30,569 nucleotides of DNA from Patescibacteria group bacterium (GTDB lineage: Bacteria > Patescibacteriota > Patescibacteriia > Patescibacteriales > GWC2-42-12): contig JAHJXD010000016.1 of NCBI GenBank assembly GCA_018827685.1, positions 1 to 30,569 of the forward strand. The letters are read 5' to 3'. The notes beneath the pieces are model-generated. The model saw only the letters and a program-made list of their open reading frames with translations, searched no databases and was not told where the DNA came from. Shown in pieces: positions 221-4,340 of the stretch (position 1 is the first letter of the stretch; every line of letters starts with the position of its first letter). A program made the translations under genes and the position numbers.

Positions 221-263
221 GTTTATTGATCATTCGGCCACAGTCCCTATAATTCTCAATTTT

Positions 264-830
264 ATGCGTTGTCCTGTCTGTTATTACGAAGATTCTAAAG
301 TAATTGATTCGCGCGTGGCATCAGATGGGCTGTCTATTAGGCGCCGGCGCGAATGCCTTAAGTGCGGTTTTAGATTTTCAACTTACGAAGAAGTGGAGAT
401 TTTGGATTTAGTGGTGGTAAAACGAGACGGTCGCAAAGAATCGTACGCGCGCGAGAAAATTGTTAAAGGATTAAAGCGGGCTTTAGAAAAACGATCCATC
501 ACTGATGATAGTTTTAAAAAGATGATTAATTCGATTGAGCGCGATTTGCAAATTTTAAGGAAAAATGAAATAACAACCGGCGAAATCGGGCAAATCGTCA
601 TGAAAATTCTAAAGAAGTTTGATCAGGTCGCCTATATCCGCTTTGCCAGCGTTTACGAATCATTTAAAGATGCCAATGAATTTAGACTGGAACTTAATAA
701 GTTGTTAAAAACAAAAAAAACTGGATCCCATGTCCGCGGCGAAATACGCAAAAGCATTTCACGCGGCAAACAAGCTCAGAATGACAAAAAAATAATTTTA
801 TGCAAGAAAATCCCATCATGCAAATTTTAA
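264..830 (+). CDS. nrdR: Transcriptional repressor NrdR, with an extended C-terminal tail
   Basis: MRCPVC Zn ribbon, RRRRECLKC, RFSTYE, ATP cone (VVKRDGRKESY), DQVAYIRFASVY. Confidence 0.97.
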   Translation: MRCPVCYYEDSKVIDSRVASDGLSIRRRRECLKCGFRFSTYEEVEILDLVVVKRDGRKESYAREKIVKGLKRALEKRSITDDSFKKMINSIERDLQILRKNEITTGEIGQIVMKILKKFDQVAYIRFASVYESFKDANEFRLELNKLLKTKKTGSHVRGEIRKSISRGKQAQNDKKIILCKKIPSCKF

Positions 831-2863
831 AACGTTCCGGCGAAATCGCGCCTTTTGATAAGGCTAAATTAGTAAGCGCGATTTTTAAAGCCACTGAAGC
901 CGTGGGCAAACCAGATCAGTTCTTAGCGCAAAAATTCAGTGACCAAGTAGTTGATCAGCTCAATGAAAAATTTCATGCCAGAAGCATCCCTGCGGTTGAG
1001 GAAGTACAGGATATGGTTGAAGAGATTTTAATTAAAAATCGTCAGATTAAAACTGCTAAAGCTTATATTTTATACCGTGACCAGCGAGCGCGCCTCAGAG
1101 AAATGAAATCAATGATTAATTCTGACGAATTGACAAAAGGCTATTTAAAACAAAGTGATTGGCGGGTTAAAGAAAATTCTAACATGAGTTATAGCCTGCA
1201 AGGCTTAAATAACCATTTAGCTTCGGCGATTTCTTCTAATTATTGGTTGAACCAAGTTTATACGCAAAATATCAGGCAAGCTCATAAAAACGGCGATTTG
1301 CATTTGCATGATTTGCAGTTTTTAGCCGCTTATTGCGCTGGTTGGGATTTAAGAGAACTTTTAATCCGAGGTTTTGGCGGTGTGGCTGGTAAGGTTGAAT
1401 CCAAGCCGGCTAAGCATTTAAGAACCGCTTTGGGCCAGATTATTAATTTTTTCTATACTTTACAGGGCGAAGTGGCCGGAGCTGAAGCTTTTTCAAATTT
1501 TGACACTTATTTAGCGCCTTTTATTAAATATGATAATTTAAGCTATAAAGATGTTAAACAAGCGCTTCAGGAATTTTTATTCAATATTAATGTGCCGACT
1601 CGCGTTGGTTTTCAGACGCCCTTTACCAATATCACTATGGATTTAACGGTTGGGTTGACCGCAGGAGAAGAAAATATTATCATCGGCGGTAAAATTATGC
1701 GGGAAAAGTATAAAGAATTTCAGCCGGAAATGGATATGATAAATTTGGCTTTTGCCGAATTAATGATGGAGGGCGATGCCAAGGGGCGCGTGTTTACTTT
1801 CCCGATTCCGACCTATAATATTACCAATGATTTTAAATGGGAATCGCCAGTAGCCACTAAAATTTTTGAAATGACAGCTAAATACGGCATCCCTTATTTT
1901 TCAAATTTTGTTAATAGCGACATGAAACCTGATGACGCGCGCAGTATGTGTTGTCGCTTGCGCCTTGATAATCGAGAATTAAGAAAACGCGGCGGCGGTT
2001 TTTTCGCTGCCAATCCTTTAACCGGTTCGATCGGCGTGGTTACTATTAATATTCCTCGCATCGGCTATTTATCAAAAACTAAACAAGAATTTTTTGAACG
2101 ATTGGATAATTTAATGCAGATTGCTTCTGAAAGCTTAGAGATCAAGCGCGCTATGCTTGAAGATTTAACTGACAAAGGTCTTTATCCATATGCTAAATAT
2201 TATTTAAATAATATTAAAGAACGTTTTAACGGTTACTGGAACAATCACTTTTCCACGATCGGTATTATTGGCATGAATGAAGCTTTATTAAATTACGAGC
2301 CAATCAGAAAAAGCATTGCTACGCCCGAAGGCAAAGAATTTGCTTTGCAAGTTATGGATTATATGAGGAATAAAGTTTTGGATTATCAGGGCAAGACCAA
2401 TCATTTATATAATTTAGAAGCCACGCCGGCCGAAGGTGTAACCAGACGTTTATCCAGGCTTGATAAAAATAAATATAAAGATATTATCGTGGCTAATGAA
2501 CAAGCCTTTCGTGCCGGCAAAGCCTCGCCTTATTATACTAATTCAAGTCAGCTACCTGTAAATTACACGAACGATTTATTTGAAGCTATGGATTTGCAAG
2601 ATGATATTCAAACTAAATATACGGGTGGCACGGTTTTGCATGGTTTTATCGGCGAAGCTTTGCCCAGTGCCGAATCAGTCAAAAATTTGGTTAAAAAAAT
2701 AGTTCATAAATATCACATGCCTTATTTTACCATTACTCCAACTTTTTCGATTTGCCCCAAGCATGGCTATTTAGCAGGCGAACATTTTTTCTGCCCTAAG
2801 TGCGATGAGGAAATAGGCTATTTATCTAAAGAAGAAATAGTAACTCAAGTTGAACAATTTTAA
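800..2863 (+). CDS. nrdD: Anaerobic (class III) ribonucleotide reductase catalytic subunit lacking the glycyl-radical C-terminus
   Basis: N-terminal ATP cone, YCAGW and RSMCCRL cysteine motifs, EATPAEG, YTNSSQLP, and a CPKH...CPKC Zn box. Ends about 20 aa after the Zn box with no RxxGY motif. Confidence 0.95.
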   Translation: MQENPIMQILKRSGEIAPFDKAKLVSAIFKATEAVGKPDQFLAQKFSDQVVDQLNEKFHARSIPAVEEVQDMVEEILIKNRQIKTAKAYILYRDQRARLREMKSMINSDELTKGYLKQSDWRVKENSNMSYSLQGLNNHLASAISSNYWLNQVYTQNIRQAHKNGDLHLHDLQFLAAYCAGWDLRELLIRGFGGVAGKVESKPAKHLRTALGQIINFFYTLQGEVAGAEAFSNFDTYLAPFIKYDNLSYKDVKQALQEFLFNINVPTRVGFQTPFTNITMDLTVGLTAGEENIIIGGKIMREKYKEFQPEMDMINLAFAELMMEGDAKGRVFTFPIPTYNITNDFKWESPVATKIFEMTAKYGIPYFSNFVNSDMKPDDARSMCCRLRLDNRELRKRGGGFFAANPLTGSIGVVTINIPRIGYLSKTKQEFFERLDNLMQIASESLEIKRAMLEDLTDKGLYPYAKYYLNNIKERFNGYWNNHFSTIGIIGMNEALLNYEPIRKSIATPEGKEFALQVMDYMRNKVLDYQGKTNHLYNLEATPAEGVTRRLSRLDKNKYKDIIVANEQAFRAGKASPYYTNSSQLPVNYTNDLFEAMDLQDDIQTKYTGGTVLHGFIGEALPSAESVKNLVKKIVHKYHMPYFTITPTFSICPKHGYLAGEHFFCPKCDEEIGYLSKEEIVTQVEQF

Positions 2864-2864
2864 T

Positions 2865-3010
2865 ATAATTAGTTGCTGTGTAAAAATTATTTGTCCACAA
2901 TTTTGGTGATTTATAAAATTCATACTTTAAGCCAAGTTTCCGCTGATCAAACGCTGATAATTACGCTGATCTACGCTGAAAAATAATATTTTTACACAAT
3001 AACTAATTAT
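2865..3010. mobile_element. 146-bp MITE-like element with 23-bp terminal inverted repeats (family A)
   Basis: ATAATTAGTTGCTGTGTAAAAAT (2865-2887) vs the reverse complement of 2988-3010, ATAATTAGTTATTGTGTAAAAAT: 21/23. Internal CGCTGA x4 (2941-2979). 2866-2944 recurs inverted at 18940-19018. Confidence 0.75.
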
Positions 3011-3027
3011 CATTTTAAATTAACATT

Positions 3028-3168
3028 ATGAGTCCAATCGAAGTTAAGAGAACAGCCTGTGAAGTTTACTCAAGAGTAACCGGATATTTAAGGCCGGTTC
3101 AGCAATGGAATGACGGCAAACAAGCGGAATATTACAACCGCAAAACTTTTAAAGTCAATAAGGAATAA
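3028..3168 (+). CDS. Stand-alone 46-aa NrdD glycyl-radical domain (MSPIEVKRTACEVYSRVTGYLRPVQQWNDGKQAEYYNRKTFKVNKE)
   Basis: Translated by hand; below the ORF-track length cutoff. CEVYSRVTGYLRPVQQWNDGKQAE is the typical NrdD C-terminal radical motif, and the ORF lies between nrdD and nrdG. Confidence 0.93.
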   Translation: MSPIEVKRTACEVYSRVTGYLRPVQQWNDGKQAEYYNRKTFKVNKE

Positions 3169-3192
3169 TGCCATCAAGCGAGTATTATTGGC

Positions 3193-3272
3193 ATTAGACT
3201 TGTTGCGTAATTATTTTATGTGAAAGAGTGTTTGGTCACAGCCCTATGGGACTGTCGCGCAGTAAGTCTATT
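3193..3272. repeat. Family C inverted-repeat pair enclosing family B ends
   Basis: ATTAGACTTGTTGC (3193-3206) vs the reverse complement of 3259-3272, AATAGACTTACTGC. Similar to the ends of 20018-20182. Inside are a B right end (3221-3245) and a GGGACTGTCGC end. Confidence 0.55.
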
Positions 3273-3275
3273 ATT

Positions 3276-4016
3276 ATGATTATCGGTGGATTGCAAAAAT
3301 TTAGTTTATTGGATTACCCCGACCGTGTCAGCGCTATTGTTTTTACTCAAGGCTGTAATTTCCATTGCCAATTCTGCTACAACCCCATGCTTGTCTGGCC
3401 ATTTCAGGTCAGCAAGTCAAAATATGCCCAAGAAGAAATTATAGGGCAACAAAAAGTTCATCCCATGATTAATCAGGATGATCTTTTTGTTTTTTTGCGT
3501 TCGCGAGCAGGCAAGTTAGATGCCGTGGTTATAACCGGTGGCGAACCATGTTTACAAAAAAATTTATTGGAATTTATTGCTAAGATAAAAAAGTTAGGTT
3601 TTTTAGTAAAATTAGACACAAATGGCAGTTATCCAGAAGCGCTGGCTAAGCTAATAAAAGAAAAATTGATTGATTATATTGCCATGGACATTAAAGCGCC
3701 TGAAAAAAAGTATAAAGAAGTAACTGGCGTTGAGGTGGATTTTCAAAAAATAAAGAAAAGTGTTAGGATAATAATGCAGAGCGAATTGGCTTATGAATTT
3801 AGAACCACGATGGTACCCGGGCTTTTAAATAAAGACGATATTGGCGAGATGGGAAAAATAATTAAAGACGCTAATAAGTGGTATTTACAAAATTTTAAAA
3901 GCAATATTGAGCTTGTTGGTCGCGATTTGGAACAGCAAGTACCATATAATGCATGGCAAATGAAGCAGATGGCGCAGATTGGCAGTCAATATGTGAATAA
4001 ATGCGAAGTTAGATAA
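3276..4016 (+). CDS. nrdG: Class III RNR activase (radical SAM)
   Basis: MIIGGLQKFSLLDYP start, CNFHCQFC radical-SAM motif, ITGGEP, KLDTNG. Start moved from 3228 to 3276 because the longer start lies within repeat DNA. Confidence 0.95.
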   Translation: MIIGGLQKFSLLDYPDRVSAIVFTQGCNFHCQFCYNPMLVWPFQVSKSKYAQEEIIGQQKVHPMINQDDLFVFLRSRAGKLDAVVITGGEPCLQKNLLEFIAKIKKLGFLVKLDTNGSYPEALAKLIKEKLIDYIAMDIKAPEKKYKEVTGVEVDFQKIKKSVRIIMQSELAYEFRTTMVPGLLNKDDIGEMGKIIKDANKWYLQNFKSNIELVGRDLEQQVPYNAWQMKQMAQIGSQYVNKCEVR

Positions 4017-4018
4017 TT
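4003..4018 (+). repeat. 16-bp direct repeat, copy 1 (includes the nrdG stop)
   Basis: GCGAAGTTAGATAATT, identical to 5638-5653. Confidence 0.75.
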
Positions 4019-4085
4019 CTGTGGATATTTGATTTATAAATTTAGGCAATGCCTAACCAAATCGGACCAAAATTGGTAGAATAAA

Positions 4086-4340
4086 ATGGCGACAGTCCCA
4101 AAATCAATTATGACTATAGAATCAGAAAAATCTATATTGGGAGACAGCAACAGCGATCCAGAATTAAAAGAGAAAGTTAAAATATTAGGCGGCAGCTTAA
4201 ATCCGGCAGAAACAATATCATCGCCGACAGTTCAAGAATTGGCAAAAAAAGAATCAGAAGAATTCCCAGGACTTTCAGAAGAAATAAGGTGGTCCCGCTT
4301 GTCAAGACAGATTATATTGACAAAAAGATATATCATTTAG
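4086..4340 (+). CDS. Hypothetical 84-aa ORF, possibly a gene remnant
   Basis: No motif recognised. Its start overlaps a family B motif and its 3' end overlaps the promoter of the next gene. Confidence 0.4.
   Translation: MATVPKSIMTIESEKSILGDSNSDPELKEKVKILGGSLNPAETISSPTVQELAKKESEEFPGLSEEIRWSRLSRQIILTKRYII

Follow-up and report, generated by a model that had tools for sequence, protein, structure and literature searches.

To our knowledge, every characterised glycyl radical enzyme (GRE) has its radical glycine on the catalytic chain, and radical modules that stand alone are known only as parts for the repair of pyruvate formate-lyase (PFL). The class III ribonucleotide reductases (RNRs) described so far pair a single-chain NrdD with the activase NrdG, as in Escherichia coli, phage T4 (1H78), Thermotoga maritima (4COI/4U3E) and Prevotella copri (8P23), and in the P. 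copri enzyme the glycyl radical domain corresponds to residues 676-739 of the one chain (PMC11226230). In reviews, the radical is placed on a "glycine in enzyme" for class III and on a "tyrosine in separate subunit" for class I (PMC4390871). Small free-standing glycyl-radical loop proteins that act in trans with a large chain and an activase are exemplified by GrcA/YfiD of E. coli and Y06I of phage T4, and a 2026 review gives the formate lyases as the only GRE class in which proteins of the spare-part type are known (PMC13450708). RNR catalytic subunits made from two adjacent genes whose products assemble have been described for the split class II NrdJa/NrdJb of Pseudomonas aeruginosa, where the detached NrdJb part also carries a Zn-finger C-terminal module, and for the fragmented class I NrdA of a phage (PMC4520616, PMC3045599, PMC9669993). 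We found no description of a split NrdD in the literature searched, and the RNR family surveys searched describe split class II enzymes and no split NrdD. Here, we have analysed a stretch of 30,569 nt from an ultra-small groundwater bacterium of the Patescibacteria group (contig JAHJXD010000016.1 of assembly GCA_018827685.1, hereafter the window), which very likely encodes a class III RNR as two obligate polypeptides, with the radical-storage loop on a separate subunit.

The locus has much in common with the single-chain systems: the same ATP-cone, barrel, finger-loop cysteines, Zn ribbon, R-V-x-G-Y loop and helix, an adjoining activase of the NrdG2 type and an nrdR gene upstream. It differs from them in that the loop and the C-terminal helix reside on a separate 46-aa polypeptide and in that the large chain has gained an acidic tail after the Zn ribbon. 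Fused relatives with 66-72% identity occur in Caldicellulosiruptor, Bathyarchaeia and other lineages. The peptide resembles GrcA and Y06I in being a small free-standing loop protein that would act in trans with a large chain and an activase, and lone phage-encoded copies exist for both types. Unlike GrcA, it is homologous to the C-terminus of NrdD and not to PFL, it has 46 aa, and it serves a partner without a loop of its own, which makes it an obligate subunit; the coexistence with a full-length, loop-bearing enzyme that goes with GrcA was not seen in this genome. NrdJa/NrdJb and phage NrdA belong to other RNR classes and their detached part holds no stored radical, whereas the 46-aa peptide would be the radical store itself. 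The parts of the locus concerned are the following (window coordinates):

800-2863, plus strand: nrdD-large, encoding the 687-aa catalytic chain (Pfam NRDD, NCBIfam NF006126) and ending with TAA at 2861-2863
2804-2860, plus strand: C-terminal tail of the large chain (D-E-E-I-G-Y, then an acidic stretch), with a signature common to split forms in the candidate phyla radiation (CPR) and DPANN
3028-3168, plus strand: gene of the 46-aa glycyl-radical peptide (Pfam NRDD 532-562), with the Gly19 codon GGA at 3082-3084
3276-4016, plus strand: nrdG, the radical S-adenosylmethionine (SAM) activase (TIGR02495 NrdG2), in an open reading frame (ORF) that is open from GTG 3228

A first-pass annotation, made from the letters alone, had described an NrdD that keeps its ATP-cone, both catalytic Cys motifs and the Zn box, stops before the radical loop, and is followed by a small ORF with the radical glycine and by nrdG. 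On recheck of the sequence, the coordinates and frames given for nrdD, its TAA, the 46-aa ORF and Gly19 all matched, and the domains were confirmed by Pfam profiles and motif positions. The large ORF matched Pfam NRDD (PF13597) over positions 1-532 of 562 (E 5e-182, 606.9 bits) and the 46-aa ORF matched positions 532-562 (E 2e-10, 40.3 bits), with a cut-off of 26.2 bits. With NCBIfam NF006126, the large ORF covered positions 3-657 of 684 (1045 bits, cut-off 548) and the peptide positions 649-683. Taken together, the two products make up the NRDD family exactly, and the break falls at one profile position.

In the large chain, the ATP-cone spans aa 7-97 (Pfam), the finger-loop SMCCRLRL starts at residue 382, with the Cys-Cys pair at aa 384-385, and the Zn ribbon is formed by C652-x2-H655 ... 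C665-x2-C668 (aa 652-668). The first half of this ribbon is CxxH and not CxxC, as it is in 66 of the 72 fused relatives. The chain ends at profile position 532, after the Zn ribbon, and lacks the glycyl-radical loop; the glycyl radical domain is absent from the polypeptide that carries the barrel and is present in trans only. PDB relatives of the large chain were 8p23, 9d3x, 4coi and 1h78. The 46-aa ORF lies at frame offset 2 with respect to nrdD, with a gap of 164 nt between the nrdD stop and its ATG, and carries the motif SRVTGY. Its Pfam search at E<=1 returned NRDD as the sole match, with no PFL-type Gly_radical domain (PF01228). A weak resemblance to the N-fragment of the Npu DnaE split intein (E about 0.5, window 3028-3165) was judged to be due to chance, the shared residues being those of the NrdD family. 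That nrdG follows was borne out by its match to TIGR02495 (210.8 bits, cut-off 131) and by a CX3CX2C motif at aa 27-34, counted from ATG 3276. This ATG is likely the nrdG start, rather than GTG 3228, since the first 15-16 residues of the ORF opened by GTG 3228 are not covered by alignments of NrdG to its relatives, which begin at residue 16-17; a spacer of 107 nt (3169-3275) separates this likely start from the end of the peptide gene.

We have then examined how far the arrangement is conserved. The peptide was present in 37 of 41 related genomes, a recurrence far beyond chance. In 32 loci taken from genomes of the same genus, family and order, the order nrdD-peptide-nrdG was found without exception (32/32), while the peptide ATG lay between 26 and 355 nt beyond the nrdD stop, with frame offsets 0, 1 and 2 all represented. 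An ATG stood at the position of peptide M1 in 30 of the 32 loci and a Shine-Dalgarno-like motif, mostly AAGGAG, was present upstream in 12 of the 32; of the long ORFs in the window, 1 in 19 has such a motif of any kind. The peptide was under strong constraint, with a nonsynonymous rate (dN) of 0-0.03 against a synonymous rate (dS) of 0.5-1.3 (median dN/dS 0.03), and R8, C11, Y14, S15, R16, G19, P23, N28, K31, E34 and R38 were invariant in 32 diverse peptides. The genome from which the window comes (865 kb, 95.7% complete) contains one NrdD, which is split, and one peptide gene, and the class I/II RNR domain PF02867 had no match in it; the split enzyme is the only RNR found there. Contigs from three independent metagenome studies reproduced the sequence on either side of the gap, and the contigs X1 (covering 2532-2905 and 2981-4100) and X3 (covering 3013-4100) matched both gap junctions exactly.

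The fission of the gene is thus genuine and ancient; the peptide has its own initiation, is kept by strong purifying selection and stays in synteny with nrdG. The two-chain enzyme proposed by the first-pass annotation is supported by this conservation, by the independent start codon, by the purifying selection and by the synteny. An assembly error is contradicted by the recurrence of the peptide in the relatives and by contigs of independent origin, which reproduced the junctions.

Most of the gap in the window is occupied by a repeat that resembles a miniature inverted-repeat transposable element (MITE):

2865-3010, no strand assigned: 146-bp MITE-like element in the nrdD-peptide spacer, with 23-nt terminal inverted repeats at 2865-2887 and 2988-3010

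The element accounts for 146 of the 164 nt of the gap and its terminal inverted repeat is 91% complementary. It had 37 matches in its own genome, 30 of them at 97-99% identity, its contig depth was 200-2450x compared with 6-100x on the flanks, and public contigs break at the repeat. A related allele with an empty site, from a groundwater metagenome run (X4), joins 2858 directly to 3011, and the pre-insertion spacer between the nrdD stop and the peptide ATG was probably about 9 nt. The near-identical copies, the depth and the empty-site allele place the insertion as a recent event, at a time when the gene was already split and had a short spacer. When the repeats pair in RNA they form a long hairpin, and the ATG, about 14 nt further downstream, stays unpaired.

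We have also compared the chain ends with those of fused enzymes. Fused relatives (of the same phylum, Caldicellulosiruptor, Bathyarchaeia, Syntrophomonas and others) read CPxC-G-x-x-[C/T]-E-V-Y-S-R-V-V-G-Y, with just 3-5 residues from the Zn ribbon to the strand that leads into the radical loop. In the split large chains, CPKC is followed by a conserved D-[EQA]-E-x-G-[YF] and then by a variable, mostly acidic tail, and the signature CxxC-D-[EQA]-E-x-G-[YF] is common to the split forms of CPR and DPANN. The peptides begin with a short, mostly basic head that ends in K-R-x-x-C. The tails had a median net charge of -4 and were negative in 46 of 54 cases, and the heads were net positive in 47 of 54; these counts take in related sequences and are not independent. 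The charges hint that acidic tail and basic head may pair, replacing the lost covalent link. A Zn site shared through peptide Cys11 was rejected for the window type of enzyme, whose large chain by itself provides the four ligands (C, H, C, C); the equivalent position is a Cys in just 48 of the 72 fused relatives. As a separate observation, a hydrophobic C-terminal end motif (I-I-x-A-I-A and similar) closes the long tails of L022, L023, L025, L027, L030, L059 and L070, and the same motif closes the extension of L032, the one fused NrdD of the same order.

For structure prediction with AlphaFold2, we have used the in-frame relative L016 (81% identical), read through three TAA codons as a covalent read-through, and an alignment of L016, other read-through rows and the 72 fused homologues. 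The model reached a mean predicted local distance difference test score (pLDDT) of 86.7 and a predicted template modelling score (pTM) of 0.81. The artificial linker had pLDDT < 50. In the peptide part, which scored 70-85, E-V-Y-S formed the expected strand and the loop was followed by the expected helix; the tail of the large chain was helical. Foldseek matched the model to the class III RNRs of P. copri, Streptococcus thermophilus, T. maritima and T4 (8p23, 9d3x, 4coj, 1h79).

In the two-chain enzyme that we propose, ATP-cone, Zn ribbon and catalytic barrel, with the cysteines of the finger loop, would come from the 687-aa chain, and the strand-loop-helix bearing the radical glycine from the 46-aa peptide. 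By analogy with the family, NrdG would take a hydrogen from Gly19 of the peptide using SAM and its [4Fe-4S] cluster; the peptide would sit non-covalently in the barrel, at the place of the C-terminal loop of the fused enzyme, and would hand the radical to a finger-loop Cys for reduction of nucleoside triphosphates (NTPs). Acidic tail and basic head, the latter with the invariant Arg8, may help to keep the chain ends together in lieu of the 3-5 residue link. Gly19 and its neighbours are invariant in sequence, from which the glycyl radical and the NTP reduction are predicted here. In P. copri NrdD, the glycyl radical domain has been shown to be very mobile and to lose its order upon dATP inhibition (PMC11226230). 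Such a domain would have to leave the barrel to meet the activase; with a detached loop, the exit from the barrel could become a binding equilibrium instead of a conformational change.

Several points weigh against such an enzyme. A glycyl radical on the free 46-aa peptide would be exposed and unstable, and activation probably needs the complex. The window has no Shine-Dalgarno motif before the peptide ATG and has the 146-nt hairpin-forming MITE ahead of it, which could reduce expression. No protein-level or clean RNA evidence for the peptide was found in this organism; in the one metatranscriptome run, exact contigs were found inside nrdD only, possibly from carried-over DNA. The structural model is a covalent read-through of a relative, in which the finger-loop tip residues (385-388) have pLDDT < 50.

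A different reading, which we consider unlikely, makes the peptide an accessory (a regulator of NrdG, a decoy substrate or a spare after damage), with the large chain working by direct radical delivery from NrdG or through a glycine of its own tail. The tail does keep a conserved G-[YF] five residues past the Zn ribbon, which MAFFT aligned with the radical GY of fused enzymes, and a decoy role is conceivable for the lone phage peptides. However, R-V-x is missing before the tail glycine, and the tail is 7 residues too short, in comparison with fused enzymes, to reach the active site; spacing and context thus rule out the glycine of D-E-E-I-G-Y as the radical site. Moreover, all the residues that define the radical loop and the next helix are invariant on the peptide, whose gene is single in each genome and always stands between nrdD and nrdG. 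We know of no glycyl radical enzyme that works without its loop, which also counts against an accessory role.

Rejoining of the two ORFs into one chain appears highly improbable and is largely refuted, be it by a self-splicing intron, bypass, frameshift, read-through or protein splicing. RNR genes are classic targets of introns and inteins, several of the sampled Patescibacteria NrdDs carry intein-sized inserts, and phage T4 nrdD itself contains a group I intron (sunY). The T4 gene is likewise interrupted by non-coding DNA, but the window differs from it in having no intron signature, a spacer that is variable among loci and mostly MITE, and a start of its own for the peptide: no Rfam family was found in 2500-3400, even at E 10 (noise only), and no intein domain was found by Pfam on either ORF. 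In some relatives (L011, G170) the two parts are in frame with one stop between them, and taking out the MITE would put the two parts of the window in frame as well. Against this, the spacer (26-355 nt) is unconserved and occurs in all three frames, that of the window is mostly an element with about 37 copies in the genome, and independent initiation is indicated by the conservation of the ATG and of the N-terminal head and by the Shine-Dalgarno-like motif of 12/32 loci.

The view that nrdD is in decay or wrongly assembled, with the small ORF as a functionless remnant, could draw on the break of public contigs at the repeat, on the idea that CPR bacteria scavenge nucleotides and on the frameshifted nrdD that mimics a split in the isolate draft of Syntrophomonas palmitatica (L067), but it has a negligible probability and is refuted by conservation, given the peptide dN/dS of about 0.03, the same arrangement in dozens of species of two domains, the exact match of X1 and X3 to the junctions and the standing of this enzyme as the only RNR found in a 96%-complete genome.

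With a two-chain class III RNR as the preferred reading, the question arises whether its peptide is replaceable. The peptide is a regular radical subunit and not a spare in the sense of GrcA, because its partner chain lacks a loop and only one peptide gene is present in the genome. O2 cleaves all glycyl radical enzymes at the glycine, and spare parts are proven for PFL (PMC8683613). By analogy, a peptide that is replaceable after O2 exposure, as the first-pass annotation had supposed, is plausible: the O2 cleavage, the strong Shine-Dalgarno motif before the peptide genes of relatives, the lone phage copies and the recurring fissions speak for it, whereas the single obligate peptide copy speaks against it, as does the radical on a free peptide, which should be exposed and unstable. 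Tentatively, and with more doubt than confidence, the peptide could be seen as a consumable "radical cartridge", such that O2 or quenching would cost the peptide only, a fresh peptide charged by NrdG would re-arm the intact 687-aa chain, the supply of peptide would be tuned separately through its strong Shine-Dalgarno motif, in a genome otherwise poor in such motifs, and phages would bring their own cartridge to keep the host RNR running. If so, the class III RNR of these lineages would store its radical on a separate subunit that can be exchanged, a counterpart in function of the class I beta subunit.

The phage copies were seen among the best 80 matches of the peptide in IMG/VR, of which 71 were short ORFs without nrdD or nrdG within 3 kb and 8 were fused genes, whereas in the cellular loci nrdD adjoins the peptide in 32 of 32. 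Since phage contigs carry lone peptide genes, their sequences imply that the peptide may act in trans with a large chain and an activase encoded by the host. On four IMG/VR contigs (L188-L191), the lone peptide gene lies directly upstream of genes for the terminase large subunit and the portal protein. One 90-kb IMG/VR contig has two different lone peptide genes (L139 and L182), about 76 kb apart. A cellular metagenome-assembled genome (MAG; L092, Falkowbacteria RIFOXYC2_FULL_36_12) also has a solitary peptide gene, the 3 kb to its left and right being free of nrdD and nrdG.

The split bears on the evolution of RNR, namely on where the radical resides in class III as compared with class I. Many ultra-small bacteria and archaea would keep the radical of the sole RNR found in them on an obligate 46-residue subunit. 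The split also offers an explanation of short ORFs annotated as the full enzyme and of lone copies in phage genomes. For experiment, the peptide offers a natural minimal substrate of the activase, and the split enzyme lets one probe how the radical loop enters and leaves the barrel and allows a test of whether O2 damage is repaired by subunit exchange.

The guess of the first-pass annotation that the split is widespread was correct. An even sample of 401 genomes of the phylum contained 116 with NrdD, where "split" was taken as a profile broken at positions 525-534 (two matches, or one match with internal stops); by an approximate tally counted from the listing, about 70 of the 116 were split (roughly 60%) and about 40 fused. 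This scoring of fused against split forms had been proposed together with that of synteny, for which the related loci gave nrdD-peptide-nrdG throughout. An operon like that of the window, its tail signature included, was also found outside the phylum, in MAGs that bear the labels Nanobdellota, Pacearchaeota, Woesearchaeota, Micrarchaeota, Hippea and Bipolaricaulota, that is, in DPANN archaea and in other lineages. Among the 150 top matches of the peptide in a collection of 1.84 billion cluster representatives, 149 had a length of 41-119 aa, and 128 of these short ones start with Met and have no CxxC. In the databases, such short peptide ORFs bear the name of the full enzyme, "anaerobic ribonucleoside-triphosphate reductase".

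In a tree built from barrel columns only, the relatives of the window formed a well-supported clade of 18 rows, all split. A single origin of the split was rejected, as 7 label changes were needed on this tree, of which well-supported branches impose no fewer than 4. The history may have involved repeated fission, re-fusion or a transfer of the 3' module.

At least three break points exist. The first, that of the window and of most other loci, is after the second CxxC. The second, in G091 and its family, is inside the second CxxC, with the two parts in frame and a single TAA between them; in this family (L051), the large chain and the small protein each contribute one Cys of this CxxC of the Zn ribbon, which suggests that the Zn site may be shared between the chains. 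The third belongs to a very distant NrdD lineage (G105, G080 and G151; L047-L049), in which a 67-73-aa protein carries both CPxCG and the Gly loop; here, the small protein is followed by an 83-103-aa thioredoxin-like CPKCP protein and then by nrdG. The occurrence of fission at several break points argues for a selective advantage. Two fused NrdDs, L061 (a Nanoarchaeota MAG) and L053 (G092), have an insert of 19-20 residues between the Zn ribbon and the Gly-loop strand; it resembles the tail plus head of split forms, and these proteins may be intermediates or re-fusions.

Upstream of the split gene, two further features were recorded:

226-253, plus strand: promoter-like site TTGATC-16-TATAAT upstream of nrdR (10/12 matches in a consensus scan; a consensus match only), a candidate operon promoter
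264-830, plus strand: nrdR, transcriptional repressor of RNR genes (Pfam Zn_ribbon_NrdR E 2.8e-20, ATP-cone E 5e-19), overlapping the nrdD start

Some other loci showed arrangements of a different kind. The genome G117 encodes a fused 764-aa NrdD with its own Gly loop (L044:725-3019), followed by an 89-aa free-standing protein (L044:3142-3411) and by nrdG. This 89-aa protein has its own CxxC...CxxC ribbon and a near-identical Gly loop, features that make it a candidate for a true spare part of a class III RNR. Tandem nrdD paralogues were present in L045 (G386) and L046 (G247), one fused copy having G-K, not G-Y, after the radical glycine; in G386, the G-K fused copy adjoins a split copy that lacks the cone and is accompanied by a peptide gene and an nrdG of its own. 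In G277, G076, G214, G334, G306, G347, G431 and G266, for example, NrdD frames had 1000-1557 aa and their profile match was broken near positions 157 and 263; the interruptions look like intein-sized inserts, and several of them are in genes that are split at the C-terminus as well. Finally, L065, L079, L104 and L131 (Desulfobacterota MAGs), and likewise P0490, P0491 and P0496, are ORFs of 106-429 aa with no nrdD nearby, whose sole recognisable part is a C-terminal Zn ribbon with an NrdD-type Gly loop, and P0496 adjoins a gene for a phage-type COOH-NH2 ligase.

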